Of a DNA stretch of 64,000 bases, positions 26,257 to 58,405 are shown piece by piece. The number at the start of each line of letters is the position of its first letter. The first letter of the stretch is position 1. Made by a program: the position numbers and the translations under genes. A model generated the notes under the pieces. It made no database searches and was not told the DNA's origin. It was given only the letters and a program-made list of their open reading frames with translations. This DNA is from Acidobacteriota bacterium (lineage in GTDB: Bacteria > Acidobacteriota > UBA6911 > RPQK01 > JAJDTT01): assembly GCA_965263035.1 (NCBI GenBank), contig OZ253580.1:2400001-2464000 (forward strand), given 5' to 3'.

Positions 26257-26416
26257 CAGTCCGTGGTGAAAGTCCCGCGAGCACCGAGACTGTTCCTGCG
26301 CCCGCCGGACCAGGCGCAACGGAGGGAGCATACCGAGAGTATGTGACCGACTCGCAACGCAGTCCGCGCACGATGCAGGGACGGTCGAATGCCGTGAGGA
26401 CTTTTGCCACGGGCTG
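26257..26416. mobile_element. 160-bp MITE, second full copy
   Basis: Closely similar to 23117-23274 with the same TIRs; no clear TSD; between divergent oppA and oppD. Confidence 0.85.
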
Positions 26417-31914: not shown

Positions 31915-32004
31915 CCGGGAAACCGTATCGGTTCCGGTGGGGCGAATTCAACAGGAACGGCGGTTTCCAACCGCCGACCAGGGGGGACAGGGGGGACGGC
32001 GTCC

Positions 32005-33363
32005 CATAAGAGCTAACTAGATTAATATCCCAGAAAGTGGCTATCAACGTGATTGGACCTTCTCCGGGGAGGTTCTTCCAAGGACGCCGAGATTTCGCGC
32101 CATTCGGCGAACATGCGTCTCAGGGAATACGCCGGTTCGATGGCTCGCGTGACTTGGTTCAATGCGAATTTGAAGTCACGCCACGGGCTGGGAGTCCTGT
32201 CCGGTCGCGACGTCGTATCCCCAGGGGGAAATGGTCCGCGCATGGCGGACCACCTTTTCGACCAGCAGCGCCACCAGCAGCTTGCCGTACAACCAGGCCT
32301 GGGCGCTTGCCTCATCGTGCTTCGGCAGGTGCCCGAGCTGGGCCAGGGACTTGAAGCGCTTGAAGACCAGTTCGACTTGCCAGCGCAGGCGGTACCACTC
32401 CAGCACTTCGGCCGCTGGGAATTTCTCCGCTGGGTAGGTTGTGAAAACGATGACGAAGCGCGCGAACCGCAGGGTTTCGGGCTGGACCTGCTTGCCCTTG
32501 CGCTGAGCCGTCCGACGGATCTTGGCATGCGCGACTTCGATGGCTTCGCCGGTCTTGCGCACCGCGCAGATCCGGCCCGCCACGGGTGGCCCGGACCGGG
32601 CCACTGTGCGGACCCTCCAACTGCCGACCGGCCCCGGTCGCAGCAGCGTTTCCACGGCTGCGAGCAGGTCGAACGCTTGGCCGGCCTCGGTTTCCAGCAG
32701 CAGCGATCCGGTGTTCACGCGCACCGTCACGGACCCTCCGCCAGCCGCGACGTGCTGAATCCCGACCGCAGTCGAGTAGCCGCGGTCGGCCAGCACGTAG
32801 TCGCCCGGCCGGATCGGGAACTGCCTGAACGACTCGCTAGTGCCGCGCCCCTGCGTCGCGGTCAGCTTGAAGAAATCACAGCCGAGCGAAGGCAGGTTGA
32901 CGCTGTAGTGAAGGCGCCACACCGACCCGGTCCGGCCGGGCTCGCGCACGGTCGTCGCATCGAACGCCCGCACTTGGAAGCCGGCGCTCTTCGACACCGC
33001 GATGCCATGCTCCCGGAACAGTTCCACGCAGAGGGCGTAGAGCCAGTCGCGGGATTTCCTCAGCCGCTTGAGCAGGGCCACGTCGGACAAATCGGCCAGG
33101 CTCGCTTGCCGAGCCCGCACCACGGTTTCGCGCAAGGAATGCCCGCAGCCGAGATGGATCAGCAGGGTACGCAGCAGGTTTTCCGGCGACTTGTCCTTGC
33201 GCAGTCCCTTCAGGGCTCCGGTCGAGGCCGCCAGATCCAGCCAATTGGCTGGGAAAAATGACACCAGCAAGTCCCAGTCCTCATTCGCAGCCGCATTTAC
33301 TACCGTTCCGCTCATGCCCTCACTATACAAGATAGCGGTCAGGCAATCAGATTAGCGCTTATG
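32005..33363 (-). mobile_element. IS4-family insertion sequence, 1359 bp
   Basis: Imperfect TIRs CATAAGAGCTAA / CATAAGCGCTAA; 11-bp TSD GGACGGCGTCC at 31994-32004 and 33364-33374. Confidence 0.92.
32176..33315 (-). CDS. IS4-family DDE transposase
   Basis: FDAT, ADRGY, YRLRWQVELVFKRFK (YREK-type signature). Confidence 0.92.
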   Translation of the reverse strand: MSGTVVNAAANEDWDLLVSFFPANWLDLAASTGALKGLRKDKSPENLLRTLLIHLGCGHSLRETVVRARQASLADLSDVALLKRLRKSRDWLYALCVELFREHGIAVSKSAGFQVRAFDATTVREPGRTGSVWRLHYSVNLPSLGCDFFKLTATQGRGTSESFRQFPIRPGDYVLADRGYSTAVGIQHVAAGGGSVTVRVNTGSLLLETEAGQAFDLLAAVETLLRPGPVGSWRVRTVARSGPPVAGRICAVRKTGEAIEVAHAKIRRTAQRKGKQVQPETLRFARFVIVFTTYPAEKFPAAEVLEWYRLRWQVELVFKRFKSLAQLGHLPKHDEASAQAWLYGKLLVALLVEKVVRHARTISPWGYDVATGQDSQPVA

Positions 33364-33374
33364 GGACGGCGTCC

Positions 33375-33502
33375 CCTCTACACTTGCCGCCTACCGAATC
33401 GCATAGCAACTACAGAAGAGCCGGCGGCAAGAAAGCCGCCTCTCCCAGTAGGCGACAAGAAAGTCGCCTCTCCCAGTGGGCGACTGGAAAGTCGCCCCTC
33501 CT
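33375..33502. repeat. composite REP element, right part (left part at ~31953-32004, split by IS4); includes three hairpins at 28-bp period
   Basis: TACACTTGCCGCCTACCGAATCGCATAGCAAC linker plus GGCGRCAAGAAAGYCGCC-type hairpins at 33423, 33451, 33479. Confidence 0.85.
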
Positions 33503-33568
33503 ATTTTCTTTCTTGACAACTCCGATCGGAATACTGAATAATGCGCCGCGTCGTCGGAAGACACGGTC

Positions 33569-34297
33569 ATGGAGACACAGATTCAACCCAATGCCTCGCC
33601 CTTGCCGGCCCCGGCTGAAATGATGTCAGCCGAGGAACTGGTGGCTTGGGCGTTGGATCGGTGGCACCCCCGGATCGCCGTCTGCACCAGTTTTCAGGCG
33701 GAGGGGATGGTGATTCTGGATCTGTGCTGGCGCTATCGCAAGGACGTTCGGGTCATGACCATCGACACGGGACGGCTCCCGGCCGAAACCTACGAAATGA
33801 TGGATCGCATCCGGGATCACTATGGGATCCGGCCGGAGGTCTTCTTCCCTCATGCCGAGAGCGTGGAAACCATGGTGCAGGAATCCGGCGCGAACCTCTT
33901 TTACCGATCCCGGGAAGAGCGCAAGCGCTGTTGCCGCGTCCGAAAGGTGGAGCCATTGGCACGGATGCTTCAACCTCTGGATGCCTGGATGGTCGGCTTG
34001 AGGCGGGATCAGTCTTCGAGCCGCGCCGGCGTCTGCAAGCTGGAGACCGATTGGGAGCACGGCTCCAAGATCAAGCTGAGTCCGCTTGCGGATTGGACCC
34101 ACGATCAGGTCTGGAACTATATCCGACGAAACCGGGTTCCGTATCATCCTTTGTATGACCAGGGTTACGGAAGCATCGGCTGTGCCCCCTGCAGTCGTGC
34201 TCTTCGTCCCGGCGAGCACCCACGCGCCGGACGCTGGTGGTGGGAACAGGGAAGCGCCCGGGAATGCGGGATCCACTGTTTTCAGAAAACCGACTGA
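33569..34297 (+). CDS. cysH: APS/PAPS reductase (CC...CxxC iron-sulfur type)
   Basis: IDTG, CCRVRKVEPL, GYGSIGCAPC, ECGIH. Confidence 0.92.
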   Translation: METQIQPNASPLPAPAEMMSAEELVAWALDRWHPRIAVCTSFQAEGMVILDLCWRYRKDVRVMTIDTGRLPAETYEMMDRIRDHYGIRPEVFFPHAESVETMVQESGANLFYRSREERKRCCRVRKVEPLARMLQPLDAWMVGLRRDQSSSRAGVCKLETDWEHGSKIKLSPLADWTHDQVWNYIRRNRVPYHPLYDQGYGSIGCAPCSRALRPGEHPRAGRWWWEQGSARECGIHCFQKTD

Positions 34298-34325
34298 TCG
34301 CTGAACCTCCATTCGGGAACCCTTC

Positions 34326-36086
34326 ATGAGCATCATGCCGCCCTCCCAGGCGCGGGCGCACGGCTCCAGCCCGAAGACCAGACTGATCTCCCCCTGGGGA
34401 GATCGACTCGTGGATCTTCTGGCCAGTCCTGAGGAATCCGAAGAACTCAGGGCTCGGGCGTCCTATCTCCCTTCCCTTCAGTTGTCCCGGCGGACTGCGC
34501 TGGACCTGGAGCTCATGGCATCCGGGGCCTTCTCCCCTCTGACCCGTTTCATGAACCGCGCCGACCACGAACGGGTGTTGGGGGAGATGCGGCTGGCGGC
34601 GGGCGCCCTCTTTCCCGTTCCCGTCGTACTTCCCGCCGCAGTCTCGCCGGAGATTCGGCTGGATACCGAGATCGCGCTCCGGGACTCCAGGAACGACTTG
34701 CTGGCGATCATGACGGTGGAGGAGATCTACGAGTGGGACGTCCGGGAGACGGCAAAGGGAGTGCTCGGCACTCTGGACATGCGGCACCCTCTGGTCGCCG
34801 AAATGCATGGCTGGGGCGAAGTCAACCTGTCAGGACGGCTCAAGGTGCTGCCCCCGCCCCGCCGGCCCGACTTTGCCGAGTTGCGACTGACGCCGAGTCA
34901 AACCCGTGCCCGCCTGCTGGAGATGAATTTTCCCGACGTGGTCGCCTTTCAGACCCGGAACCCTCTGCACCGGGCTCATGAGGAGCTGACTCGCCGGGCC
35001 ATGGAGGAGACCGGAGGCGCCTTGCTGCTGCATCCCGTCGTGGGCATGACCCGCCCCGGCGACGTGGACCACTACACTCGGGTCCGCACCTACAGGGTGC
35101 TGGCCCGCGACTACTACGACTCCCGCCGGGTGCTCCTGAGCCTGCTCCCCTTGGCCATGCGGATGGCCGGTCCCCGCGAGGCCCTTTGGCACGCTCTGAT
35201 TCGAAGAAACTACGGCGCCAACGCTCTGATCGTCGGCCGGGACCACGCCAGTCCGGGAACGGGACGGGGTGGCCTTCCTTTTTACGAACCATACGAGGCG
35301 CAGGAACTGGTGCGGCGTTTCAGCGGCGAGACGGGAGTGAGGATGATTCCCTTCCGGCAACTGGTCTATCTGCCGGACGAGGACCGATACGAGGAGGTCG
35401 GCCGCGGGCACCCCGCGACTCGGACAGCGTCCATCTCAGGATCCCAGGTTCGGGACGACTATCTGCGGAAGGGCCGCGACCTTCCCCACTGGTTCACACG
35501 TCCCGAGGTGGCGGACATTCTGGCCGAAGCTTACCCGCCGCGCCACCGCCAGGGAGTCTGTATCTGGCTCACCGGATTGAGTGGCTCCGGGAAGTCGACG
35601 ACGGCCCAGGTCCTCACCGTTCTCCTTCAGGAGCATGGGAGAAGGGTCACGGTTCTGGACGGCGACATGGTCCGGACCCATCTCTCCAAAGGACTGGGCT
35701 TCAGCAAGGAGGACCGGGACACCAACATTCTTCGCATCGGCTTCGTGGCAGCCGAGATCGTCCGGCATGGAGGCACGGTGATCTGCGCCGCCGTGAGTCC
35801 GTATCGGGAGACCCGGAATCAGGTCCGGTCCATGGTGGGAAGCGGCCATTTCGTGGAAGTGTTCGTGGACACTCCCCTGGAGGTCTGCGAGGAGCGGGAC
35901 GCCAAGGGCATGTACGCCAAGGCCCGGCGCGGAGAGATTCGCGGATTCACCGGCATCGACGACCCCTACGAGTCTCCCCGGGACCCTGAAATCACCCTGG
36001 ACACGGTGCGCCATTCACCTCAGTTGAATGCTCAGGCAATACTGGACCACTTGCGGCGGCGGGGCTACGTCCGACCGGCGGAATAG
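34326..36086 (+). CDS. sat: bifunctional sulfate adenylyltransferase / adenylylsulfate kinase
   Basis: AFQTRNPLHRAH, IVGRDHA; kinase WLTGLSGSGKST, LDGD, FTGIDDPYE. Confidence 0.94.
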   Translation: MSIMPPSQARAHGSSPKTRLISPWGDRLVDLLASPEESEELRARASYLPSLQLSRRTALDLELMASGAFSPLTRFMNRADHERVLGEMRLAAGALFPVPVVLPAAVSPEIRLDTEIALRDSRNDLLAIMTVEEIYEWDVRETAKGVLGTLDMRHPLVAEMHGWGEVNLSGRLKVLPPPRRPDFAELRLTPSQTRARLLEMNFPDVVAFQTRNPLHRAHEELTRRAMEETGGALLLHPVVGMTRPGDVDHYTRVRTYRVLARDYYDSRRVLLSLLPLAMRMAGPREALWHALIRRNYGANALIVGRDHASPGTGRGGLPFYEPYEAQELVRRFSGETGVRMIPFRQLVYLPDEDRYEEVGRGHPATRTASISGSQVRDDYLRKGRDLPHWFTRPEVADILAEAYPPRHRQGVCIWLTGLSGSGKSTTAQVLTVLLQEHGRRVTVLDGDMVRTHLSKGLGFSKEDRDTNILRIGFVAAEIVRHGGTVICAAVSPYRETRNQVRSMVGSGHFVEVFVDTPLEVCEERDAKGMYAKARRGEIRGFTGIDDPYESPRDPEITLDTVRHSPQLNAQAILDHLRRRGYVRPAE

Positions 36087-36143
36087 GACCCGGAACCTGA
36101 CAAGGTCGGGGTGAACGATCCGGTCCGGCGTCCGGCAGGAATC

Positions 36144-36219
36144 TGGTGGAGGTAATCGGATTCGAACCGACGACCCCCTGCTTGCAAAGCAGGTGCTCTT
36201 CCAACTGAGCTATACCCCC
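36144..36219 (-). tRNA. tRNA-Ala (TGC)
   Basis: GGGGGTATAGCTCAG...CCTGC-TTTGCAA-GCAGG...GTTCGAATC...CCA, 76 nt. Confidence 0.97.
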
Positions 36220-36402
36220 ACCCTGGACCGAGAAATCTATAGCGAAAATCGCCGGAGCAATTGGCTTGCGTCCCCGGCGATTCACCCTATGAGCGTCCAG
36301 TTTAGCAGCCCCGGACAACGTGCGTCTCGGTCCGGAGCGGCGACCCTTAGTCGTCGAACTCCGGTGAAGCCATGGGGGGGGAGGGCGACTGGGCGACGGG
36401 AA

Positions 36403-37044
36403 GTCGCGGTAGGGACGCCGGTTGCCCAGCGCCCCCCGCGCAGATCCGTGCGTGCCCGTTAAGGCACACGGCTCCTACCTCAGGTAATGACGGCAGGTCG
36501 CGACGCCCGCCGTATCCGACCCCCGCCTGTGTCACGGTAGCCCGGCTCTGAGTCCGGTCCGTACTTTGGTGAGCCGAATTCCCCTTGGTTCCACCCCTTC
36601 GCTCCACCGACTCCGCAGAGAGTTCCCCCTCCTTGTTCGCCCGCTTCATCACTACTATGGGTGAATCCGATTGCTTCCTCTCTCCCCTCATGGGTTACGG
36701 CTTTCCCCTTTCCCACAAGGCCCCGGCTTTCGCCGGGGAGAGAGTAAGCCCTCCCAGGTCCCGACACCAGATGTACGTACGTGCATGGGTTCTTTGACAC
36801 CGCAGAGCCCGGCTGCCCCTCACCCTGGCGGTCCAGCCGGTGTTGCCTTCGACCGCGACTACAGCCTCGGCACTTCCGATCAGGGAGCTTTCGATGCTCA
36901 ATAGCCTGCCCATACGCACCGCTACCGACGCTTCGCCGACACCCTCACGGGTGCCCACGCACGGCTCGCGGAGAAACGTGGATGGTTAGTCCTTCGTTTC
37001 AGCGGACTTTCACCGCCTATCTTGTGCCAGTTAGCCTGGCGCAC
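36403..37044 (-). ncRNA. ORF-less group II intron (IIB-type), 642 nt
   Basis: 5' GTGCG at 37044; domain V GAGCCGTGTGCCTTAACGGGCACGCACGGATC; domain VI ending CCCTACCGCGAC; flanks rejoin to a REP hairpin. Confidence 0.88.
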
Positions 37045-37059
37045 AGCCGCCGCTCCAAG

Positions 37060-39042
37060 TCACCCAGAGACGGTGCGGGGCCGGGTGAAGGGTTCTTCCA
37101 GGTATTTGCTTGCCTCGGCCTGGGCTCCATTGTAATCGATCTTGCTGTTTGCGGCTTTTCGGTATTCCGACTTGGCCCGCTCCCGCTGTCCCAGAATGTC
37201 GTAGATCTTTCCCAGGTGGATGTGGATCCAGGTCTCGATCCAGGGAGGATTCAGGTTCCCGTTGAGCGACTCCCGGAAGGCGTTGGCCGAATTGGAGAAG
37301 CTGTGCTGCTGGAAGAACACCTCACCCAGCCGATAGCTGGCCATGGAGCTTCTGGGGTCCATCTCCTGGGCCTTCTCGAACTCCTGAATCGCCGCCACGA
37401 ACTCCGACTTTCGCTGGTAGTCCTCGCCCAGCGCGATGTGGACCAGGACTCGCATCCGGTCCGAATCGTTCAGGATCTTCCCGTTGGGATCCACTATCAC
37501 CCGGAGGGGCCGGTCCTTCATATCGAGCTTGAACGAGGTGGAGCGGCCCCCGATGACAAATTTGTCGTCCTTGGCTTCGCCCTTGGTCTCGATTCGCAGG
37601 TCGGCCGGCATGCGGAAGAGGTCGATGTCCTGCTGCACCTGCCCGCGGATCTGGAAGTTCCCGTCTCTCATCTTGTAGATGTTGTAGTCGATCTTGAACT
37701 CGGGGACTCCGACCGACTCGACCCACTGGACGAAAAACCAGCCGTAGTCTTCGCCGGTCTTCCGTTGGACGAAGCCGACGAAGTCCTGGGTGCCGGTCTC
37801 CTGGTTTTTCCGCTCCTGGTACCAGTCCTTGAAATATCCGTTGAAATCGTCGCGGCCGATGAGCTGACCCAACATGTAGAGCACCCAGGCCCCCTTGCTT
37901 CCGACGATGGATTCGTACTGGTCGGAGCCGGGTTTGAAGGTGATGCCCTCGGTGATGGGCGCCAGCTTCTGGTGCTTCATGGCTTCCACCGCCTCACGTG
38001 CCAACGCGGCACGAAAATCGTCGGCGTGGTTCATCTCCATGTAGCGGAGAGCGGCATAGGTACAGAAGCCTTCGCGGAGGAAGACGTCCCGATACCCCTT
38101 CAGGCGCGCCGAGTAGCCCCACCAATGACGGGCCAGCCGTTTCGCCAACTCCATCACCGGCATCCGCTTGGCCTCGAGCAGTCCGGATTCCAGCAATATC
38201 AGGCCGAACGACCCGGAGGTCTCCAATTCCACCTTGCCCACCGCAACCAGGTCCAGACTGGACAGCGGGCTGGGTCCGTACTCCTGGTTGAAGAATTCCA
38301 GAATCTTTCCGATCTCCTGGGCCCAGGGAGCCAAATCGTCCGTGAAGTCCTCCCTTACGTGGAAGCTGACCGGGACCGGACCCTCATTGAAGGTCTGACG
38401 GAGAAATTGGGAGACCACCACGGGGATCTCGGTCAGGGGAAAGTCACTCGACCAATTGAAGACTTCGGTGACGCCCTCGGTTCGGATCGACTCCAGGCGG
38501 CCGGGCGCTACAGCCGAGAATCCGAGGGGAACCCGGACCGACACCCTGGCCGTTGCCGAGTCCAAGGGAAGCAGGTGCTGCGGGAACCAGCGGCCTTCGG
38601 TCAGGAGCAGGGCTCCGTCGGGGGAGATCACGGCCTTCTCGGTACGAGCGACATTCAGGAAGGCGAATTCATCGCCTTCCAGATTCCCCTCGATCCGGAA
38701 GCTGAGCGTCACCTCGGCCCCCGGATTGAGGGACTTGGGACCCTGAACCCTCATATTCTTCTGGCTCAGGTCGTCGAATCGGGTCGAGTATCGGTTCCCG
38801 TCCTGGTCCGTAGTCTCCAGAATGCTGAGCTGGTTGTTGAAATCGAAGGGAATGCTGAGGATGTTCTCCAAGACCTTGAAGGTGACCCGGGCCGTCCCCT
38901 GCAAGAAACGCTCCTGGGGATCCACCTCTACCTCGATGTCGTAATGGCTCACATCCAACAGACGGGGGCCGGTGGGAACCGTCTCCGCCCAGGCCAGAGC
39001 ATTCCCCAGAACCAGAAGAAAAAACGCAGTCAGCACTTTCAT
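37060..39042 (-). CDS. M1 aminopeptidase-fold protein with C-terminal TPR; zinc motif degenerate
   Basis: Signal peptide; LAKRLARHWWG..LREGFCTY..KGAWVLYML; TPR helices. Confidence 0.78.
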   Translation of the reverse strand: MKVLTAFFLLVLGNALAWAETVPTGPRLLDVSHYDIEVEVDPQERFLQGTARVTFKVLENILSIPFDFNNQLSILETTDQDGNRYSTRFDDLSQKNMRVQGPKSLNPGAEVTLSFRIEGNLEGDEFAFLNVARTEKAVISPDGALLLTEGRWFPQHLLPLDSATARVSVRVPLGFSAVAPGRLESIRTEGVTEVFNWSSDFPLTEIPVVVSQFLRQTFNEGPVPVSFHVREDFTDDLAPWAQEIGKILEFFNQEYGPSPLSSLDLVAVGKVELETSGSFGLILLESGLLEAKRMPVMELAKRLARHWWGYSARLKGYRDVFLREGFCTYAALRYMEMNHADDFRAALAREAVEAMKHQKLAPITEGITFKPGSDQYESIVGSKGAWVLYMLGQLIGRDDFNGYFKDWYQERKNQETGTQDFVGFVQRKTGEDYGWFFVQWVESVGVPEFKIDYNIYKMRDGNFQIRGQVQQDIDLFRMPADLRIETKGEAKDDKFVIGGRSTSFKLDMKDRPLRVIVDPNGKILNDSDRMRVLVHIALGEDYQRKSEFVAAIQEFEKAQEMDPRSSMASYRLGEVFFQQHSFSNSANAFRESLNGNLNPPWIETWIHIHLGKIYDILGQRERAKSEYRKAANSKIDYNGAQAEASKYLEEPFTRPRTVSG

Positions 39043-39046
39043 GGCA

Positions 39047-40201: not shown

Positions 40202-40350
40202 TGGACTGGACGGGGCGCCGGAAGTTTCATGCGGCTGCGATGTTTCGCGGAAGGTCATATCGGCCTGCAGCGAAAGTCGGTGACCGGTGGTCCCGGTCGG
40301 CGGTTGGAAACCACCGTTCCTGTCCAGCGATTGGAAATCGCCGCTCCGCG

Positions 40351-41490: not shown

Positions 41491-41637
41491 GGTTGCCGAT
41501 CACTCCCTTCTTGGTTCCGATCCACGACTTGGCAGCCCGGGACAAGAACCGGCGACCACAAGGGCCGCCCTTGTCGCTTCCGTTTGCCCTTTGGTTCCCG
41601 GAGCGGACCCAATCCGGATTCTACCGGGGACGATCGA

Positions 41638-42411: not shown

Positions 42412-42691
42412 GATGGGTGCCAGCAACCGCGAATTATAGCACGGGGGTGGACGAGGAAAGAGGAAAGAGACAAGGAGAGAAGAGGGGGGGCGCCTGCTCC
42501 CGGCCAGGGGCCTCGACCGGGCAGAAACTGTCCGAATGATAGACATTCGGTGTCCACTATTTTTACACCTTGTATCTCATTGATATATTTGGACTTTCCT
42601 TGATTTGGGCCGTGATGGGCTGTCAAACTGGTTGACGGTCCCAATTTTGGAAGCTCGCCGTAACATCAAGCAATACAACGGTTTTCGTAGT

Positions 42692-42707
42692 TGGCACGGG
42701 TCTTGCT
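42692..42707 (+). promoter_or_regulatory. sigma54 (-24/-12) promoter
   Basis: TGGCACG-GGTC-TTGCT matches the TGGCACG-N4-TTGCW consensus, 27 bp before the ATG. Confidence 0.8.
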
Positions 42708-42734
42708 ACAAGAATGCCTCAGAAGGAGGTGTTC

Positions 42735-43307: not shown

Positions 43308-43391
43308 GCCCCGGCCGCAAAATGCCGCCGCGGCCTCCTCCCCCCGGCCGCGGCGGCTGGGAGGGCGGCTATTCAATGGGCGTCTCCAGAC

Positions 43392-43451
43392 TGTATAGGG
43401 GGGACTCCGTCCCCTTACCCCCCTAATCGGCGACAAGAAAGTCGCCGCTCC
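43392..43451 (+). repeat. partial composite REP element; unoccupied group IIC target site
   Basis: GGGGACTCCGTCCCC..CGGCGACAAGAAAGTCGCCGCTC|C, same as the 5' exon of both IIC introns. Confidence 0.8.
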
Positions 43452-46981: not shown

Positions 46982-47061
46982 GGCGTTCCCTTCAATGTCC
47001 AGTTTATAGACAGTTCAGTGACAAATTCTACAACATTCGGTCTCTGTGTCAACGGACCGGT

Positions 47062-47240
47062 GGGAGCGCGACTTTCTTGTCGCCCACTGGGAGAGCCGGC
47101 TTTCTTGTCGCCCATTGGGAGAGGCGGTTTTCTTGCCGCCTCCTCTTCTTTGTTGCTATGCGATTCTGTAGGCAGCAAGTGTAGAGTGGGGGACTCCGTC
47201 CCCCCTGCCCCCCTGGTCGGCGACAAGAAAGTCGCCGCTC
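47062..47240 (+). repeat. composite REP element (three hairpins, linker, terminal hairpin) forming the 5' exon of the intron
   Basis: Reverse-complement homologue of 31953-32004 plus 33375-33502, and of 56546-56680. Confidence 0.85.
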
Positions 47241-47870
47241 GTGCGCCCGACATGGGCTGTATCTAAGGGATGAAAGATCCCAAGGGAGGTGATGGGACCA
47301 ACCCTAGCCGAACCGCAAGGCGTAGCCGCGAGGTGAAGCTGAAGGAAGCGGAAGGCAAACCCACGACCGCAGGAACACGAACCGGCAGCGAGGCCGGGTG
47401 CGGGCGGTGAGCTGGCGAGCAACAGCGAAACCCGAACCCCATCCAGACGTACCAGGTAGAGCCGGGCGGCCCGGGGGGAAAGATGCAGCACCTTACTCGG
47501 GGAGATCTCAAGGGTGAGAGCCTTTGAGAAGTCAGCAGAGGTCATAGTAGCGAAGAAGCCGGATAATGCCGGTGGAGCGAAGGACCGAAGGAGTCGGACG
47601 GGCCCTATGGTGGACTCGTCAGCGGGATCGCAACTACCTCCGGAAACGGGGCGGGGGGAGGCCCCTCGGACCCGGCACGGAAGGCCCAAGGGTGGAACCC
47701 GTCAAGCCGGAAGGGCGGAGATCAAGTCCCAGCGGCGGCGAAAACCGGAAAGAAAGGCCCTTTACGAGGCTCGAAAGAGCCTCGAGTGACTCCAACCGCC
47801 GGATACTGAAAACGGTACGTCCGGTGGTGTGGGAGGGTGCAGGGGCGCAATCCCCTGCACTCGACCCGAT
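47241..47870 (+). ncRNA. ORF-less group IIC intron, 630 nt, copy 1
   Basis: 5' GTGCGCCC; IIC-type domain V AACCGCCGGATACTGAAAACGGTACGTCCGGTGGT; 3' ..CGACCCGAT; domain IV ~200 nt closed by GAGTC/GACTC with no RT ORF. Confidence 0.92.
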
Positions 47871-47874
47871 CCGT

Positions 47875-50603: not shown

Positions 50604-50627
50604 GGCAGCAAAGATAGCAGAGAATGA

Positions 50628-50853
50628 GGAGCGGCGGTTTCCAGCCGCCGGACTCCCAAGGAAACAAGGGGGCGGGCGTGGAGCGGCGGTTTCCAGCCGC
50701 CGGACTCCCAAGGGAACAAGGGGGCCGGCGTGGAGCGGCGGTTTCCAGCCGCCGGACTCCCAAGGGAACGACGGGGCGGGCGTGGAGCGGCGAATAGAAG
50801 AGGGGGCGACTGGAAATCGCCCCTCCTTTGGGCGACAAGGATGTCGCCCCTCC
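50628..50853. repeat. tandem REP array: three 52-bp units, a partial unit and two further hairpins
   Basis: GGAGCGGCG starts at 50628, 50680, 50732, 50784; hairpin GGCGG-TTTCCAG-CCGCC. Confidence 0.9.
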
Positions 50854-50889
50854 GGAGTGGGAAACCGGCTGTTATAATCGCGCGCTCTC

Positions 50890-51744
50890 ATGCGACGACT
50901 GGTGCTTACGCTGCAGATGATCAAGTTCGAGCACACCGTCTTCGCCCTGCCCTTTGCTTTTCTGGGAGCCCTTCTGGCCCAGCGCGGGCTGCCCGGGGGC
51001 GAGACCTGTCTCTGGATCGTTGGAGCCATGGTGGGAGCGAGAAGCGCGGCCATGGCCTTCAATCGACTGGTGGACCGGCGCCAGGACCGGCTCAATCCCC
51101 GGACCGCCGGACGGGAGCTGCCACGGGGACTGCTGGAACCCGGTTTCGTCATCGGCTTCATTGTGGCGTCCGCGGGGCTCTTCTTCTTCTCGGCCTGGAG
51201 GTTGAATCCGCTCGCCCTGCTGCTGTCGCCGCCGGCCCTGGTCATCGTCCTGCTCTACAGCTATACGAAGAGGTTCACCTCGCTGTCCCACCTGTTCCTG
51301 GGCCTCTCCCTGGCCATCGCTCCGGTCGGGGGATGGGTGGCGGTGCGGGGTGAGCTGTCCGCAGGCCCATTCTACCTGGCGGCCGCCGTTCTGCTCTGGG
51401 TGGCCGGCTTCGACATCATCTATTCCTGCCAGGACGTGGACTTCGACCGCCGCCTGGGCCTGTACTCGATCCCGGGCCGCCTGGGAGTGGCCGCGGCCCT
51501 GAAGATCTCGCCGCTCCTCCACGCCGGGATGGTGGCCGTCCTGGGATACGCTTTTCACTCCTTCGATCTGGGCCTGTTGAGTTGGGCCAGTCTGATTCTG
51601 GTGACAGCCGCCCTGATCTACGAACATCGAATCGTCAGTCCTACCGACCTGAGCCGGGTCAACGCCGCGTTTTTTGCGGTCAACGGCGTTATCAGTCTAG
51701 GGCTGCTTCTGTTCGTAGGTCTGGATCTATGGCTGTTCCGGTAG
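50890..51744 (+). CDS. UbiA-family prenyltransferase (MqnP-like)
   Basis: KFEHTVFALPF, FNRLVD..D..NPRT..R, YSYTKR, FDIIY..QD..FD. Confidence 0.88.
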   Translation: MRRLVLTLQMIKFEHTVFALPFAFLGALLAQRGLPGGETCLWIVGAMVGARSAAMAFNRLVDRRQDRLNPRTAGRELPRGLLEPGFVIGFIVASAGLFFFSAWRLNPLALLLSPPALVIVLLYSYTKRFTSLSHLFLGLSLAIAPVGGWVAVRGELSAGPFYLAAAVLLWVAGFDIIYSCQDVDFDRRLGLYSIPGRLGVAAALKISPLLHAGMVAVLGYAFHSFDLGLLSWASLILVTAALIYEHRIVSPTDLSRVNAAFFAVNGVISLGLLLFVGLDLWLFR

Positions 51745-52994
51745 ACGAATCTCCGACCCTGGCCTTGGACCTCTCGACCCGGACCCGGCCGGGAGAAACT
51801 TCTCTCCCGCCGGATGGGCGGGAGCCTGTGGTCCGCATGGTGGACCTCATCGTCTTCGACGCCATCGGCAAGAGAGCCAGCGACATTCATCTGGAGACCT
51901 ACGACGGGGAGTTCCGGATCCGCTACCGGATCGACGGGGTCCTCTATCCGGTCGCCGCGCCGCCCCTGGCCCTTCGGGATGCCCTCATTTCCCGAGTCAA
52001 GATCCTGGGCGATCTGGACATCGGCGAACGGCGGCTTCCCCAGGACGGCCGAATCCGGATGAAGGTTCCGCAGTCCGGAGAGGACCGTGAGATCGATCTC
52101 CGCGTCTCCTCCCTCCCCACCATTTTCGGAGAAAAGCTGGCATTGAGGATCCTGGACCGGGAGCACCTCCCGCGGAGCCTGTCCGAACTCGGGCTGGAGG
52201 AGGTCTCCCTCGAGCGGCTGAGGAGAGCCCTGCGGAGATCCCATGGAATCGTGCTGGCCACCGGCCCCACCGGTAGCGGCAAGACCAGCACCCTCTACAC
52301 CTGCTTGTCCCGGCTCAACCACCCCGGAACGAACATCAATACCGTGGAGGACCCGGTGGAGTTCAACCTCTCGGGGATCAACCAGGTCCAGACCAAGGAC
52401 TCGGTGGGTCTGAGCTTCGCCACAGCACTCCGGGCTCTGCTGCGCCAAGACCCGGATGTCCTTATGGTGGGGGAGATCCGGGACCGGGAAACCGCGGAGA
52501 TCGCCATTCGCGCCGCCATCACCGGACACTTGGTGTTGAGCACCCTGCATACGAACGACGCCGCATCGACGGTGGGCCGGCTGCTGGACATGGGGATTCC
52601 TCCGTTCCTCATCGCCAGTTCGGTGAACCTGGTGTGTGCCCAACGGCTGGTGAGGAGGCTGTGCGGGGAATGCAAGGAGCCTAACCGGGCCCCGGTTCCG
52701 ATCCCGGAACCGGCCGGAACCGGGACCGACCCGATCCTCAAGATCTCCCGCTTCGACGCCCGGGGTTGCCCCGCCTGTCACGGCACGGGCTATCGAGGGA
52801 GGATCGGACTGTTCGAAACCATGGAGGTGACCGAGACCATCCAGCAACTGATCCTCCAGGGTGCCGACGACGCCAGGATCCGGAAACAGGCGGTCAGCGA
52901 GGGGATGGTCACCCTGCGGGGCAGCGGACTGGAGAAGATTCGTTCCGGCGTCAGCACCGTGGAGGAGGTGCTGAAGGCCACGCACCTCGCTTGA
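51729..52994 (+). CDS. pilB: type IV pilus / T2SS extension ATPase (PilB/GspE), short N-terminus
   Basis: ASDIH, RLPQDG, GPTGSGKT, LRQDPD, tetracysteine motif. Confidence 0.88.
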   Translation: MAVPVDESPTLALDLSTRTRPGETSLPPDGREPVVRMVDLIVFDAIGKRASDIHLETYDGEFRIRYRIDGVLYPVAAPPLALRDALISRVKILGDLDIGERRLPQDGRIRMKVPQSGEDREIDLRVSSLPTIFGEKLALRILDREHLPRSLSELGLEEVSLERLRRALRRSHGIVLATGPTGSGKTSTLYTCLSRLNHPGTNINTVEDPVEFNLSGINQVQTKDSVGLSFATALRALLRQDPDVLMVGEIRDRETAEIAIRAAITGHLVLSTLHTNDAASTVGRLLDMGIPPFLIASSVNLVCAQRLVRRLCGECKEPNRAPVPIPEPAGTGTDPILKISRFDARGCPACHGTGYRGRIGLFETMEVTETIQQLILQGADDARIRKQAVSEGMVTLRGSGLEKIRSGVSTVEEVLKATHLA

Positions 52995-53005
52995 CCCGGT
53001 GAGTA

Positions 53006-54094
53006 ATGGAGGTTGAACAGACGCGTCCCACGGGACAGATCCTGAAGCTGTTGCGGCTGGCCCACGACTCCGGCGCCAGCGACCTGCATCTCATTCCCGA
53101 TTCCGTACCCTGCCTGCGTGTCCACGGCCGGCTCGTGGCCGCGAACCATCTCCGGCTGAACCTGGAAGAGACTCGGCACTTGGCCTACGGCATCATGTCC
53201 GACCGGCAAAGGGCCCGCTACGAGCGTCTCCGGGAGATCGACTTCAGCTTCGAGGTGGAGGGCCTGTCCCGATTCCGCGCCAACGTCTTCACCCGCCGTG
53301 GAAAGACGGCGGCAGTCGTACGTCTCATCCCGCTTCAGGTCAAACGCCTGGAGGAGTTGGGACTGCCGGCGGTGGTGGATGGTCTGGCCGTCCGGCCCCG
53401 CGGCCTGGTCCTGGTCGCCGGCTCCTCGGGCAGCGGCAAGTCGACCACGCTGGCGGCTCTCATCGACCGGATCAATCGAACCCAGGCCAAACACATCATC
53501 ACCATCGAGGACCCCATCGAGTTCGTGCACCACAACCACATGAGCGTCGTCAGCCAGAGGGAGGTGCCGGGGGATTCCTCCTCGTTTGCGTCGGCGCTCC
53601 GCATGGCCCTGCGGCAGGACCCCGATGTGGTCCTGGTGGGGGAGATGAGGGATACCGAGACCATCGAGACCACTCTCCGGCTGGCGGAAACGGGGCATCT
53701 GACCCTTTCCACCCTCCACACCCGATCGGCCCCCGACACCATCGGGAGAATTCTGGACATGTTCCCTGGCGATCAGCAGGGCCGGATCCAGTCCCTTCTC
53801 TCCTCGGTCCTGGAGGGAATCGTCTGTCAGGCCCTGATCCCGTGCCGGAAGGAGCCGGGGCGGGTCGTGGCCGCGGAAGTCCTGATTCCCAACCCGGCCA
53901 TCCGGAACCTGATCCGCGAGCAAAAGCTCCACCAGATCCGCTCGGCCATGCAGACAGGCCAGGCCGGAAGCGGGATGTGCACCCTGAATCAGAGCCTGGC
54001 CAGGCTCTTCCTCGCCGGCCGGATCTCCTACGAGACCTGCCTGGAGGTCTCGCAGGACGCTGCCGACCTGCGGCGGTGCCTGGATCGGCCGTAG
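53006..54094 (+). CDS. pilT: type IV pilus retraction ATPase
   Basis: ASDLH, GSGKSTT, TIEDPIE, AETGHL, AIRNLIRE. Confidence 0.93.
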   Translation: MEVEQTRPTGQILKLLRLAHDSGASDLHLIPDSVPCLRVHGRLVAANHLRLNLEETRHLAYGIMSDRQRARYERLREIDFSFEVEGLSRFRANVFTRRGKTAAVVRLIPLQVKRLEELGLPAVVDGLAVRPRGLVLVAGSSGSGKSTTLAALIDRINRTQAKHIITIEDPIEFVHHNHMSVVSQREVPGDSSSFASALRMALRQDPDVVLVGEMRDTETIETTLRLAETGHLTLSTLHTRSAPDTIGRILDMFPGDQQGRIQSLLSSVLEGIVCQALIPCRKEPGRVVAAEVLIPNPAIRNLIREQKLHQIRSAMQTGQAGSGMCTLNQSLARLFLAGRISYETCLEVSQDAADLRRCLDRP

Positions 54095-54145
54095 GGCCGC
54101 CCCTCCGGTTCACTGTTTTCCAACCCCCAATCGTTACCAATATCA

Positions 54146-55246
54146 GTGGACACTCCGAACGAGCGGGAATGGCGTCCCCGCCGTATTGCTCAGGCTCGAA
54201 TCGGAAGGATCTCGACCCGGCAGCTGGCCCTGTTCACGCGGCAACTGTCGGTGATGCTGGGGGCGGGCGTCTCGCTGGTGTCGGCCCTGCAGAACCTGGC
54301 GCAACAGGAGGAGAACCGCGCCCTGGGCACCACCCTGCGCCAAGTCCGTTACGACGTGGAATCGGGGTCCACGCTGGCTGCGGCGCTGGAACGCCATCCC
54401 CGTGTCTTCGATCCCCTATTCGTCAACCTGGTCCGGGCGGGAGAGACGGGTGGATTTCTGGACACCGTGTTCAAGCGTCTCACCCGATTCTTGGAAAAGA
54501 GGCTCCAGTGGCGCAAGGCGGTGCTCTCGGCCTCTCTCTATCCGGCGGTCGTCATCATGACTTCGTTCATGGTCGTGGGCGTCATCCTGGTCTGGGTGAT
54601 TCCGGTCTTCGCATCCCTCTTCGCCAACCTGGACCTCCCCCTCCCATTGCCGACGCGGATGGTCATGGGAGCCAGCGGGTTCCTGAGCCGGTGGGGAGTG
54701 CCCCTGAGCCTGGGGGCGGGGACGGCGGCCCTGGCGGGTGGATTCTACTTTCGAACGGCCAAGGGGCGGAGGTGGGTGGATCGATTCATCCTGGCGGCCC
54801 CGCTGTTGGGCCCGGTGACGACCCAACTCCTGACGGCCCGTTTCGCACGGACCTTTTCCACCCTCCTTTCCAGCGGAGTCCCCATCCTGGAAGCCATGGA
54901 CCTGACGGCGCGGGCTCTGGGGAACGTGCGGTTTCAAGAAACGGTGCTGGCGCTCCGGAGTAAGGTCGAGTCGGGGAGCACCTTGGCGGAACCATTCCGG
55001 CACAGCGGCCTCTTTCCCCAGATGGCGTCGGAAATCATTCGGATCGGCGAGTTGACGGGCACGCTGGACGACATGCTTCTGAAACTGGCCGTCTACTACG
55101 AGGAGGAAGCGGACACCAGCATAAACCGGTTTCTGGCGCTCCTGGAACCCATGATGATGTTGGTTCTGGGTATCGTCGTCGGCGGCATGGTGCTTTCCAT
55201 GTATATGCCCATCTTCAGCCTCATGGGGCGGCTTTCCAGCTTCTGA
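54146..55246 (+). CDS. pilC: type IV pilus platform protein (PilC/GspF)
   Basis: FTRQL..ML.AG, AGETGG.L, GELTG.L, LLEP, MYMPIF. Confidence 0.92.
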   Translation: MDTPNEREWRPRRIAQARIGRISTRQLALFTRQLSVMLGAGVSLVSALQNLAQQEENRALGTTLRQVRYDVESGSTLAAALERHPRVFDPLFVNLVRAGETGGFLDTVFKRLTRFLEKRLQWRKAVLSASLYPAVVIMTSFMVVGVILVWVIPVFASLFANLDLPLPLPTRMVMGASGFLSRWGVPLSLGAGTAALAGGFYFRTAKGRRWVDRFILAAPLLGPVTTQLLTARFARTFSTLLSSGVPILEAMDLTARALGNVRFQETVLALRSKVESGSTLAEPFRHSGLFPQMASEIIRIGELTGTLDDMLLKLAVYYEEEADTSINRFLALLEPMMMLVLGIVVGGMVLSMYMPIFSLMGRLSSF

Positions 55247-55345
55247 GGAACCCGGAGCCGGAATCGGAAATTCTTCTCATGGATACGCGGGCGGGGACGT
55301 TTCATACTATGCAAGGACGAGACAGCAAGCGAGGATGAAATAATC

Positions 55346-55909
55346 ATGCTCCAACGAACCAAGGTCTTTCCGGTGTCCGACTGCGGAGCCCGGATCCGAA
55401 AAGAGTCCGGCAGCTCTGCCTCGATGCCCTCTCACTCTCCCCAGAACGGAGCTGCCGGATTCTCTCTGATCGAACTCATGATCGTGGTGGCCATCATCGG
55501 GATCATCTCCATTCTGGCGGTTCCCAATTTCATGCGTTCCCGGCTCTTCGCCAACGAAACTTCGGCCATCGCCTCGCTCCGGGTCACCGTCACGAGCGAG
55601 ATCACCTATGCCTCCACCGTGGGGAACGGATCCTTCGGTAGTACAGAGGACTTGTTGGACAACGGGCTGATCGATGCGGCGCTGGGGTCCGGCACCAAGG
55701 ACGGCTACAACCTGAGCCTGACGGCGGACGGAGCCAGTGGATTCACGGTCACCGCCGTTCCCGTCACGGCGGGCACCACCGGACAGCGGGGATTCTATGC
55801 CGATCAGACCGGGGTGATCCGGTACAGCGAGGACGGATCGGCGCCGACCGCGGCCAGTCCCGCATTGGGCACCGAGAGCGCGAAGGAAGAAGAAACGGAC
55901 GGAGATTAA
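55346..55909 (+). CDS. type IV pilin
   Basis: G|FSLIELMIVVAIIGII prepilin motif; alternative start at 55424. Confidence 0.88.
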   Translation: MLQRTKVFPVSDCGARIRKESGSSASMPSHSPQNGAAGFSLIELMIVVAIIGIISILAVPNFMRSRLFANETSAIASLRVTVTSEITYASTVGNGSFGSTEDLLDNGLIDAALGSGTKDGYNLSLTADGASGFTVTAVPVTAGTTGQRGFYADQTGVIRYSEDGSAPTAASPALGTESAKEEETDGD

Positions 55910-55915
55910 GGATGG

Positions 55916-56545
55916 ATCGGGTCGAGTGCAGGGGATTGCGCCCCTGCACCCTCCCACACCACCGGACGTACCGTTTTCAGTATCCGGCGGTTGGAGTCAC
56001 TCGAGGCTCTTTCGAGCCTCGTAAAGGGCCTTTCTTTCCGGTTTTCGCCGCCGCTGGGACTTGATCTCCGCCCTTCCGGCTTGACGGGTTCCACCCTTGG
56101 GCCTTCCGTGCCGGGTCCGAGGGGCCTCCCCCCGCCCCGTTTCCGGAGGTAGTTGCGATCCCGCTGACGAGTCCACCATAGGGCCCGTCCGACTCCTTCG
56201 GTCCTTCGCTCCACCGGCATTATCCGGCTTCTTCGCTACTATGACCTCTGCTGACTTCTCAAAGGCTCTCACCCTTGAGATCTCCCCGAGTAAGGTGCTG
56301 CATCTTTCCCCCCGGGCCGCCCGGCTCTACCTGGTACGTCTGGATGGGGTTCGGGTTTCGCTGTTGCTCGCCAGCTCACCGCCCGCACCCGGCCTCGCTG
56401 CCGGTTCGTGTTCCTGCGGTCGTGGGTTTGCCTTCCGCTTCCTTCAGCTTCACCTCGCGGCTACGCCTTGCGGTTCGGCTAGGGTTGGTCCCATCACCTC
56501 CCTTGGGATCTTTCATCCCTTAGATACAGCCCATGTCGGGCGCAC
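55916..56545 (-). ncRNA. ORF-less group IIC intron, 630 nt, copy 2
   Basis: Reverse complement of 47241-47870; same length; overlapping spurious ORFs translate identically. Confidence 0.92.
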
Positions 56546-56680
56546 GAGCGGCGACTTTCTTGTCGCCGACCAGGGGGGCAGGGGGGACGGAGTCCCCACT
56601 TTACACTTTCCGGCCTCTACACTTCCCGCCCACTGAATCGCCTAACAACACAAAAGAGCAGGCGGCAAGAAAGCCGCCTG
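56546..56680 (-). repeat. composite REP element forming the 5' exon of intron copy 2
   Basis: GAGCGGCGACTTTCTTGTCGCCGACCAGGGGGCAGGGGGGACGGAGTCCCC..GAATCGC..GGCGGCAAGAAAGCCGCC. Confidence 0.85.
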
Positions 56681-56711
56681 TACCCTTCTCAAGTAGTCTT
56701 TAGGGAACTTC

Positions 56712-56905
56712 ACCCATGGTGGGTGAAGAGGGCCAACCGGCCGGGAGCTACCATAAAGCCGCAGCGCTCTCAGAGCACCTGGAGGGGACTCGTGCCCCGG
56801 CCGGTAGCCGCGATGGAGAACCTGTGGGAAGTCAGTGTCCAAGAACACCAGTACAGGAACCGATCCGAATCGCGGCGGCCCGACGTCCATTTAATCACTA
56901 GGAGG
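56712..56905 (+). ncRNA. putative IS110 bridge RNA
   Basis: Contains exact 10-11 nt matches to the right target flank and to the donor junction. Confidence 0.65.
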
Positions 56906-56911
56906 TTCGGG

Positions 56912-58159
56912 ATGAAACCAAGTCAATGGTTTGTGGGGGTCGATTGGGCGTCCCAGGCGCACCAAGTCTGCGTCGTGGATGAGCGAGGCACCTGTCAGGG
57001 ACAGCGCAGCTTCCCGCACAGCGGTTCGGGCCTGGCCCAGATGGCCGACTGGATCCTGCAGCAGACGGGGACGAGAGCGGAGGCCGTCTCGGTGGCGATT
57101 GAAGTGCCGCACGGTCCGGTGGTGGAGTTTTTGATGGGGCGATGCTTTGTCGTGTATGCCATCAATCCGAAGCAGCTGGATCGATTCCGCGACCGCTTCT
57201 CGCCGGCAGGCGCCAAGGATGACCGCCGCGATGCCCGAGTGCTGGCCGACGCGATCCGAACCGACGGCCATCGCTGGCAACGGCTGGAACCGGTCGATTC
57301 TGAAATGATCCAGCTGCGCGAGTTCTCAAGACTGGGTGCGCAGTTGACCCGCGATCGGACCCGGCTTCTCAACCGCCTGCGCCAACAACTCTGGCGCTAC
57401 TATCCGCAGTTCCTACACCTGAGCAAGGATCTCGCCGAGCCCTGGGTGATGGAAGTGTGGAAGCTGGCCCCGACACCGGATGCGGCCCGGAAGCTGCGCC
57501 CGAGCCGGGTCGCCAAGGTGTTGAAAAAGCATCGGATCCGGCGTATCGACGCCCCAGAGGTCCTGCGTCGCTTGCGGGTACGCTCCCTCCCGGTCGCCCC
57601 GGGCACCACCCAGGCGGTGAGGGTCCACATCGAAAGTCTCGGTGAGCGCCTGGCCGTGGTGCGGAACCAACTCCGGGACATCTCTCGTGAGCTCGACCGT
57701 TTGATCCGGGCTTGGGAGAAGCGGTGCGAGTCGACGCCGGGGCCCCAAGGACCGTGCCGGGACGTGGCGATCCTCGCCTCCCTGCCCGGCGTCGGCCGAA
57801 TCGTCCTGGCCACCCTGCTCTCGGAAGCCTTCGATGCGATCCGGCGCCGAGATTACGCCGCTTTGCGATGTCTGTGCGGGGTGGCCCCCGTGACCCGGAG
57901 TTCCGGCAAATACACCCGTGTCGTGCGCCGCCAAGCCGTTCATCCTCGTCTGCGGGAAGCGGCCTATCATTGGTCGCGCGTGGCCACGCAACACGACCCC
58001 ATCAGCCGAGCCAAGTACGCTGCCCTGCGGGAGCGCGGCCACGGCCATGCCCGGGCCCTGCGGTCCGTTGCCGATCGCCTGCTGGCGGTGGCCTGCGCCA
58101 TGTTGCGAGACCAGACGGAATACGATGCGAATCATGCAAGACAGCGCCGGGCTGCTTGA
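56912..58159 (+). CDS. IS110-family recombinase/transposase
   Basis: GVDW, IEVP, KDDRRDA, SLPGVG, PVTRSSG; AGGAGG RBS. Confidence 0.93.
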   Translation: MKPSQWFVGVDWASQAHQVCVVDERGTCQGQRSFPHSGSGLAQMADWILQQTGTRAEAVSVAIEVPHGPVVEFLMGRCFVVYAINPKQLDRFRDRFSPAGAKDDRRDARVLADAIRTDGHRWQRLEPVDSEMIQLREFSRLGAQLTRDRTRLLNRLRQQLWRYYPQFLHLSKDLAEPWVMEVWKLAPTPDAARKLRPSRVAKVLKKHRIRRIDAPEVLRRLRVRSLPVAPGTTQAVRVHIESLGERLAVVRNQLRDISRELDRLIRAWEKRCESTPGPQGPCRDVAILASLPGVGRIVLATLLSEAFDAIRRRDYAALRCLCGVAPVTRSSGKYTRVVRRQAVHPRLREAAYHWSRVATQHDPISRAKYAALRERGHGHARALRSVADRLLAVACAMLRDQTEYDANHARQRRAA

Positions 58160-58405
58160 TCCGGATCTGGACCGAGGGACGTTGTAGGCTCCACCCCGGC
58201 GCGGTCGCACCAGAAGCTCAAGAGCGACATCCATCCGGGCGACCATGGACTGGACCCGGGGATCGCTTCAGGAGGTCAATGGGAACCACCGTGCCAGAGA
58301 GGACCCCCAGGGGGAGGCCCGGCGAAGGAAGCGTAGCGACCGCAACGGGGCCTCCCCCTGGGGGTCAAATCCCGCTTGACAAAGGGTGGGAAGTCCCCTC
58401 CAGCG

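Follow-up and report, generated by a model that had tools for sequence, protein, structure and literature searches.

Why do unrelated introns and insertion sequences (IS) collect at the same kind of place in a genome? The question is raised by a stretch of 64,000 nucleotides from an Acidobacteriota bacterium (GenBank assembly GCA_965263035.1, contig OZ253580.1), which comprises bases 2,400,001-2,464,000 of a single-contig genome of 6.198 Mb with 62% G+C. The whole stretch is called the window below, the genome is designated G000, and the sister species are G002, G003, G004, G005 and G007. Five large mobile elements are present in the window, i.e., two copies of a group IIC intron, one further group II intron of 642 nt, one IS4-family element and one IS110-family element. 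A first reading, made from the sequence only, had placed all five in or next to a composite repetitive extragenic palindrome (REP), had stated that none disrupts a gene, and had proposed that this REPIN-like unit is a gene-sparing target shared by unrelated elements. The location was confirmed, no open reading frame (ORF) with Pfam support is interrupted by any of the five, and the shared target is supported for four families. It is very probable that the hundreds of nearly identical REP copies serve as intergenic targets and that four unrelated elements are each specific for a sub-site of their own.

The repeat was defined by self-BLAST and by reading of the sequence. Its unit is a hairpin, GGCG(A/G)C-AAGAAA-G(T/C)CGCC, followed by GCTC or CCTC. 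The units form composites, often of 130-190 bp, which consist of one to three tandem hairpins in the same orientation, a spacer of about 45 nt, a G-rich central palindrome (GGGGGACGGAGTCCCCC) and a terminal hairpin in the opposite orientation. A full composite is exemplified by positions 47061-47240. A looser hairpin definition was dropped, as it gave 929 hits versus 396 with scrambled control loops, and hairpins with an NCTC-type tail were counted instead. Genome-wide, 350 such hairpins were found in 215 clusters, and 167 hairpins end in GCTC. These counts are lower bounds, because the definition misses a 17-nt subfamily with TGGAAA loops (GGCGGTTGGAAACCGCC and relatives). Non-coding-like DNA, which was delimited by a crude filter on ORFs and third-codon-position G+C (GC3) and thus by an approximate coding mask, harbors 76% of the REP hairpins. 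The family has the features that define REPs: the palindrome is short, imperfect and rich in GC, its copies number in the hundreds and are mostly extragenic, and they often form inverted or tandem composites.

The REP territory comprises 15.8 kb, which is 0.26% of the genome and 0.87% of the non-coding-like DNA. Nevertheless, of the 37 copies that the four families have in the genome, 35 occupy fixed REP sub-sites (binomial p about 5e-70), so that the comparison with intergenic DNA that the sequence-only reading had suggested came out in its favor.

The largest of the four families is the group IIC intron. The two window copies are 99.7% identical across 696 nt, the REP flank included (self-BLAST), and they match the Rfam families RF02001 with 81.4 bits (gathering score 32) and RF01998 with 47.2 bits (gathering score 35). 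The scores of the IIC copies with RF00029 are 38.1-40.4 bits and thus borderline against a gathering score of 40; window copy 1 reaches 39 bits. Both window copies begin with GTGCG right after GGCGACAAGAAAGTCGCC plus GCTC, in agreement with the earlier description of two IIC introns immediately 3' of the terminal hairpin. The genome contains 24 copies, i.e., 19 intact copies of 630 nt, two copies of 1848 nt, and three copies that other insertions have broken up, in at least one case an IS3-family (rve) element. In all 24 cases the insertion point is directly after a hairpin plus GCTC. The hairpin is of the REP type in 23 cases, and the sole other site is an unrelated 7-bp hairpin, which likewise has a GCTC tail. 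The 3' exon starts with C in 23 of the 24 copies. In G000 the intron motif GAGC (47417-47420 in copy 1) is combined with the exon sequence GCTC, whereas GAGG is combined with CCTC in a sister species. This compensatory change identifies exon-binding site 1 (EBS1) and intron-binding site 1 (IBS1) of the IIC intron.

Both 1848-nt copies, which are located outside the window, carry an intact ORF for a reverse transcriptase (RT)/maturase. The ratio of ORF-less to RT-bearing copies is thus 22:2, and the earlier description of the introns as ORF-less is correct for the copies in the window, but not for the IIC family as a whole. The encoded protein has only the domains RVT_1 and GIIM, matches TIGR04416 with 362 bits, and has the GsI-IIC RT as its closest solved relative (451 bits, E 4.6e-134). 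It is a RT/maturase without an endonuclease domain, as is typical for class C.

The second intron family, with a length of 642 nt, differs from the IIC intron in its mechanism and inserts into the hairpin in the opposite orientation. The window copy is inserted in the hairpin loop (GGCGGCT^TTCCCGTCGCC), and the hairpin that hosts it lies 3 nt after the stop codon of a peptidase M1 gene (37060-37062). Its match to RF00029 (36.9 bits at 36403-36476) is below the gathering score of 40. The genome contains seven full copies and one 5' fragment, and six of the seven full copies as well as the fragment occupy the same position in the REP hairpin loop. Copies from G000 and from four sister species were aligned for a covariation analysis. 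The EBS1/IBS1 pair is AGTCGC/GCGACT in G000, AGTCCC/GGGACT in G002, AATCGC/GCGATT in G005 and GGATGC/GCATCT in G004, and the EBS2/IBS2 pair is GCTCC/GGAGC in G000 and CATGCA/TGCATG in G004. Both pairings therefore show compensatory change, as expected for a IIB-like intron. By this base pairing the intron is predicted to read about 12 nt of the REP (GGAGC-G-GCGACT). The sequence-only reading had described a IIB-type intron inside a hairpin. The loop position was verified, while for the class it was shown that the intron is non-IIC and uses both EBS1 and EBS2 for exon pairing, which establishes the IIB type only partly.

A cognate RT for the 642-nt intron was sought in G000 and was not found; the best matches were the RTs of the other two intron families, with 36-37% identity. 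Family members with an ORF insert of about 1.3 kb are present in G002, G004 and G007. The insert of G004 encodes a group II RT/maturase (generic TIGR04416 match), and the RT of the family in the sister species shares 33-38% identity with those of the other two intron families of G000. Of the lost RT ORF the ORF-less copies retain only about the first 57 codons. A third, RT-bearing intron family of 2.0 kb (RF02003), the flanks of which are not REP, was considered as the parent of the 642-nt intron and was rejected, because only chance nucleotide patches of 15-17 nt are shared. Altogether, G000 has about 35 group II intron copies from at least three families.

The two introns can also be found together. 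At genome positions 3066875-3070027 three elements are nested in one composite REP, with a 642-nt intron in a hairpin loop and, about 110 nt further on, a IIC intron after the terminal hairpin, which is in turn interrupted at position 264/276 by an IS3-family (rve) element of 1.78 kb.

The third family is represented by the IS4-family element. As the sequence-only reading had reported, it is inserted in the central palindrome, from which its 13-bp duplication GGGACGGCGTCCC is derived. The transposase was identified by PF01609 (E 1.2e-16) and NF033592 (147.5 bits, cut-off 115). A second copy at genome positions 3982254-3983610, the only other close one, occupies the same palindrome, so that the 13-bp duplication was found in two of two copies; a relative with 72% identity (5837710-5838827) was excluded from this count. 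An IS4-type DDE transposase, inverted repeats and the 13-bp duplication are visible in both copies.

The fourth family is the IS110-family element, the recombinase of which contains the domains PF01548 (DEDD) and PF02371 (Transposase_20) and matches NF033542 with 188.8 bits (cut-off 140). It had been placed about 30 bp from a copy of the repeat, but it is in fact inserted within the 3' arm of the hairpin at 56661-56676. This hairpin belongs to the composite REP that also carries IIC copy 2 (composite REP C in Table 1). The window element and three further full copies all lie in the 3' arm of a REP hairpin (4/4; a partial left end at genome positions 2558548-2558731 was excluded). Two copies have the junction GGCGGCAAGAAAGCCG^CC, and in the remaining pair it is GGGGACAA(G/A)AATGTC^CC. 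The leader of the window element (56677-56911) contains a putative target guide, TAAAGCCGC (56754-56762), and a putative donor-end guide (56781-56792), which is complementary to the right end of the element. The 9-mer in the leader is TAAAGCCGC in the two copies that reside within ...GAAAGCCGCC hairpins and TAATGTCCC in the two copies within ...GAATGTCCCC hairpins. At three positions the 9-mers differ in the same way as the two target hairpins do. This pattern would be the one expected of a bridge RNA, for which no Rfam match was obtained.

The orientation of the introns relative to replication was also informative. The origin is located at the GC-skew minimum at 2.86 Mb, which coincides with dnaA at 2.872 Mb. 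The sense strand lies on the lagging-strand template for 20 of the 24 IIC copies and for all seven 642-nt copies. Among the 167 GCTC-tailed REP hairpins 20 are occupied and 147 are empty, and the lagging-strand template was found for 17 of the 20 occupied versus 53 of the 147 empty hairpins (Fisher p = 4e-5). One empty site had been recognized in the window (43392-43451), and it indeed consists of the palindrome and the hairpin plus GCTC without an intron. The region orthologous to the occupied site at 47240 contains a REP hairpin plus GCTC and is intron-free in G003, G004, G005 and G007; thus, at least this insertion took place after speciation, and the comparison of occupied with empty alleles that had been suggested agrees with the proposal. 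The lagging-template bias and the intron-free orthologous sites support insertion that is active and linked to replication.

Sequencing runs added little to this. In the assembled contigs of four runs, which break at repeats, no contig bridged an element with at least 31 letters on both sides. In run X2 one contig joins 24 letters of the hairpin plus GCTC directly to position 47871, as in an intron-free allele, which is only a hint, because one side is short and its letters are repeated. A joint of 23 letters from 31977 to 33422, which skips the IS4 element, was present in runs X2 and X10 and is similarly short-sided. In the RNA-library run X15 the depth was 2618 in the intron bins versus about 12 in the flanks, as contig depth, which sums all copies and organisms.

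How might four elements share one repeat? In the two introns and in the IS110 leader, guide and target change together in a compensatory manner, which points to targeting by base pairing, as far as can be judged from sequence. The IIC intron would reverse-splice into single-stranded DNA right after the hairpin, and it would read the stem-loop, the 4-nt IBS1 (GCTC, pairing with EBS1 GAGC) and the following C. The two RT-bearing copies most likely provide the protein in trans to the 22 ORF-deleted copies. The 642-nt intron would home by pairing of AGTCGC with GCGACT and of GCTCC with GGAGC to the 5' flank and the 5' arm of the REP, and would land after the first base of the loop. As G000 has no cognate RT, its seven copies are either relics or have been moved by a foreign RT. 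A leader RNA containing the target sequence may direct IS110 into the 3' arm, as the covariation suggests, and IS4 presumably inserts in the central palindrome under duplication of 13 bp. Three of the four elements would thus recognize their targets by base pairing. If targets are read in this way, few mutations in the guide would suffice to redirect an element to an abundant, harmless repeat, and such easy retargeting would explain the convergence on REP.

A candidate for the transposase of the repeat itself is encoded at genome positions 2482813-2483487. The ORF of 224 amino acids (aa) contains PF01797 (Y1_Tnp; 36 bits, cut-off 23) and resembles the REP-associated tyrosine transposases (RAYT; NF047646) with 73.9 bits (E 1.2e-20), which is under the cut-off of 80. 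REP hairpins are present on one side of the gene, and a REP half with an intron is located at its stop codon. The repeat was treated as a true REP/REPIN-type family with a putative link to a RAYT. In the region 2482159-2483487 the RAYT-like gene ends directly at the half-hairpin that carries a copy of the 642-nt intron, and thus the locus of the presumed transposase of the repeat has itself been invaded. At the orthologous clusters in G003, G004, G005 and G007 the REPs have mainly TGGAAA-type instead of AAGAAA loops, showing that the dominant REP variant varies among species of the genus.

The presence of a RAYT-like gene leads to the first alternative, i.e., that the elements are passengers, either because a RAYT copies REPINs together with their inserts or because the inserts spread by homologous recombination or gene conversion. 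Many IIC copies have about 60-70 nt of upstream composite-REP sequence in common, as this would predict, and both IS4 copies are flanked by REP on two sides, so that conversion is possible for IS4. However, the 3' flanks are distinct in all 24 IIC copies, and two-sided homology therefore does not exist. The upstream contexts differ as well and include composite ends, tandem hairpins, variant hairpins and the one non-REP hairpin. Most GCTC hairpins are empty, the lagging-template bias is confined to occupied sites, and the covariation of EBS and leader guides with their targets would not be expected for passengers. Spreading as passengers is therefore unlikely.

A historical explanation was judged to be very unlikely, namely that the copies all stem from an old burst and can no longer move, the ORF-less introns being dead. 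It would agree with the missing cognate RT of the 642-nt intron and with the three of 24 IIC copies that are broken by other insertions. On the other hand, the IIC family includes five copies with 100% and nine with at least 99.7% identity as well as two intact RT genes, the identity among three copies of the 642-nt intron is 99.4-100%, and the site that is empty in four sister species dates an insertion as younger than speciation. Untargeted insertion followed by purifying selection that leaves only copies in harmless REP DNA is scarcely credible, even though every insertion in the window spares genes and 161 generic hairpin plus GCTC sites are coding-like with one IIC copy in such a place, because the insertion point is nucleotide-identical within each family, which by itself largely refutes it, restriction to intergenic DNA of any kind would not gather the survivors in a repeat that makes up less than 1% of the non-coding-like DNA, the guides covary with the targets, and other IS families of G000 sit outside REP.

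Targeting of REP sub-sites by four families is thus retained as the explanation, and several points weigh against it. The 642-nt intron is without a cognate RT in G000, which makes its present-day homing hypothetical. The identification of the RAYT falls just short of the NCBIfam cut-off (73.9 versus 80 bits), and the gene map behind the term non-coding is the crude filter described above. Mobility and splicing are predicted from sequence features, to which the contigs add one short-sided joint. The numbers are small for the two IS families, with two copies of IS4 and two lineages of IS110. Outside the REP territory about 280 perfect 6-bp hairpins with GCTC exist, many of which are REP variants missed by the definition; as 161 of them are in coding-like DNA, selection against insertion into genes may add to the pattern. 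Finally, most families of mobile elements ignore REP. Of the roughly 60 multi-copy families that self-BLAST revealed, almost all except these four lack REP at their ends, so that the term shared landing pad fits four families only. These four have REP as their target; mobile DNA generally does not. A pair of 1313-bp repeats adjacent to REP was considered as a further mobile element and proved to be two paralogous oxidoreductase genes.

The comparison with known systems refers to the available parts of the papers cited. Three natural target specificities of group II introns are listed in a review (Zimmerly & Semper 2015, PMC4424553), i.e., homing sites, terminators and attC, and IIC introns insert at the stem-loops of the latter two. 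The IIC intron of G000 shares with class C introns the RT without endonuclease (En) domain, the insertion directly 3' of a DNA stem-loop and the very short IBS1 (PMC4424553), and its lagging-template bias matches the bias reported for En-less (class C) introns in a survey from 2022 (PMC8919778). In contrast to the class C introns in PMC4424553, its stem-loops are REPs without a U-tract or attC features and with a fixed GCTC^C tail, and its ORF-less derivatives exceed the RT-bearing copies 22 to 2, although ORF-less bacterial introns are called rare in the same review. Insertion just 3' of a stem-loop is therefore the known class C rule, and what is unusual is the REP hairpin and the 22:2 excess.

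REPs are established targets of IS elements, and several IS families can use the REPs of one host (Tobes & Pareja 2006, PMC1525189), as in G000. REPs are also targeted by IS621 and other IS110-family elements, which employ bridge RNAs (Durrant et al. 2024, PMC11208160); the IS110 element of G000 resembles them in its fixed position in the REP hairpin in four of four copies and in a leader with a putative target guide. In contrast to both systems, the same composite REP also serves two group II intron families in G000. The only intron in the table of PMC1525189 is a group II intron of P. putida KT2440 with REP association of two of nine copies, whereas 23 of 24 and six of seven copies are associated here, and at fixed nucleotides. 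That entry was the only case of REP-specific group II introns found in the open-access literature; subscription papers or the supplements of PMC1525189 may hold more. The trans-mobilized introns of Thermosynechococcus (Mohr et al. 2010, PMC2882425) are similar in that ORF-deleted derivatives proliferate beside RT-bearing relatives, but they belong to other classes than C, and the available text does not report targeting of REPs by them; the 642-nt family differs by having no cognate RT in its own genome. A group IIB intron of halophiles (PMC7923331) is likewise a non-IIC intron in a repeated, hairpin-forming recombination site; its target is attC, whereas the 642-nt intron targets the loop of a REP hairpin via EBS1 and EBS2.

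The features of the window are compiled in Table 1.

Table 1. Mobile elements and REP structures between positions 31951 and 58401 of the window.
Feature	Position	Strand	Details
Composite REP A, left part	31951-32005		ends in 13-bp target duplication GGGACGGCGTCCC (31993-32005)
IS4-family IS, 1357 bp	32006-33362	-	transposase ORF 32176-33330 (-); terminal inverted repeats ATAAGAGCTAAC.../...GTTAGCGCTTAT
Composite REP A, right part	33363-33510		second 13-bp duplication (33363-33375), spacer, three tandem A-orientation hairpins
REP hairpin split by 642-nt intron	36392-37056	-	5' half GGAGCGGCGGCT (37056-37045), 3' half TTCCCGTCGCC (36402-36392)
642-nt ORF-less non-IIC group II intron	36403-37044	-	RF02005 165.4 bits; EBS2 GCTCC 36888-36884, EBS1 AGTCGC 36860-36855
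Two unoccupied TGGAAA-loop REP hairpins	40292-40350		between lpxB-like and mnmA-like genes
Empty target	43392-43451	+	central palindrome 43398-43414, terminal hairpin+GCTC 43429-43450, intron-free
Composite REP B	47061-47240		three tandem T-orientation hairpins, spacer, palindrome 47188-47205, terminal hairpin+GCTC 47219-47240
IIC intron copy 1, 630 nt, ORF-less	47241-47870	+	RF02001, RF01998; EBS1 GAGC 47417-47420
Unoccupied REP-variant array	50628-50860		three tandem 52-bp units and two more hairpins
IIC intron copy 2, 630 nt, ORF-less	55916-56545	-	inverted relative to copy 1
Composite REP C	56546-56676		terminal hairpin+GCTC 56546-56567 (minus orientation) carrying IIC copy 2
Composite REP C, rest	palindrome 56581-56597; last hairpin 56661-56676 and split 3' arm		last hairpin and split 3' arm host IS110
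IS110-family IS	~56677-58401	+	ends uncertain by up to 5 nt around CC core; ORF probably ATG 56912 to 58159

Between 30 and 60 kb the window contains ordinary housekeeping genes, and every element studied is intergenic. The genes include sulfate-activation genes, the M1 peptidase, lpxB, mnmA, an extracytoplasmic function (ECF) sigma factor, a two-component pair, a hydantoinase, ubiA, type IV pilus genes and rpoC. The 52-bp units of the REP-variant array (50628-50792), each of which holds a variant hairpin GGCGGTTTCCAGCCGCC, lie between a hydantoinase B-like gene and ubiA. Another sequence of about 160 nt is repeated with 92% identity at window positions 23117-23274 and 26257-26416, upstream of or beside different genes, and a 58-nt inverted partial copy is present at 17890-17948. 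No Rfam family matched this repeat at the gathering score, and it could be a leader, a non-coding RNA or another small repeat.

Some further observations concern the whole genome. The load of repeated DNA is very high, with 382 regions and 616 kb, or about 10% of the genome, in the self-BLAST. An additional match to intron domains V/VI was found at positions 340877-340952 with 52 bits, and no RT lies in its vicinity. A weak RVT_1 match (30.7 bits) at 1811265-1811774 is located within an open frame of 1253 aa and is a RT domain fused to something large, unrelated to the introns.

A wider reading is possible, although rather doubtful at present, namely that REP families are a general safe harbor on which base-pair-guided elements converge again and again, IIC introns via EBS1 and the hairpin, homing introns via EBS1 and EBS2, and IS110 via a bridge RNA, that the ORF-less retroelements of this lineage resemble miniature inverted-repeat transposable elements (MITEs), and that the 642-nt family is perhaps cross-mobilized. 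If the ORF-less 642-nt introns, copies of which are still 99-100% identical, do move without a cognate RT in the genome, a heterologous intron RT would have to mobilize them.

Taken together, REP hairpins add a fourth type to the natural targets of group II introns, which otherwise comprise homing sites, terminators and attC. Two mechanistically different introns solve one targeting problem on a single 22-nt repeat, and with the two IS elements they provide a compact natural case in which one repeat is partitioned into four sub-sites by four elements. The covariations between guides and targets are ready-made predictions for retargeting. With its approximately 35 group II introns the organism is unusually intron-rich, as most bacteria have three or fewer according to earlier work cited in the survey of 2022 (PMC8919778, available part), and its ORF-less expansions bear on the origin of bacterial non-autonomous retroelements. 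Jumping DNA can home in on harmless repeats rather than on genes.

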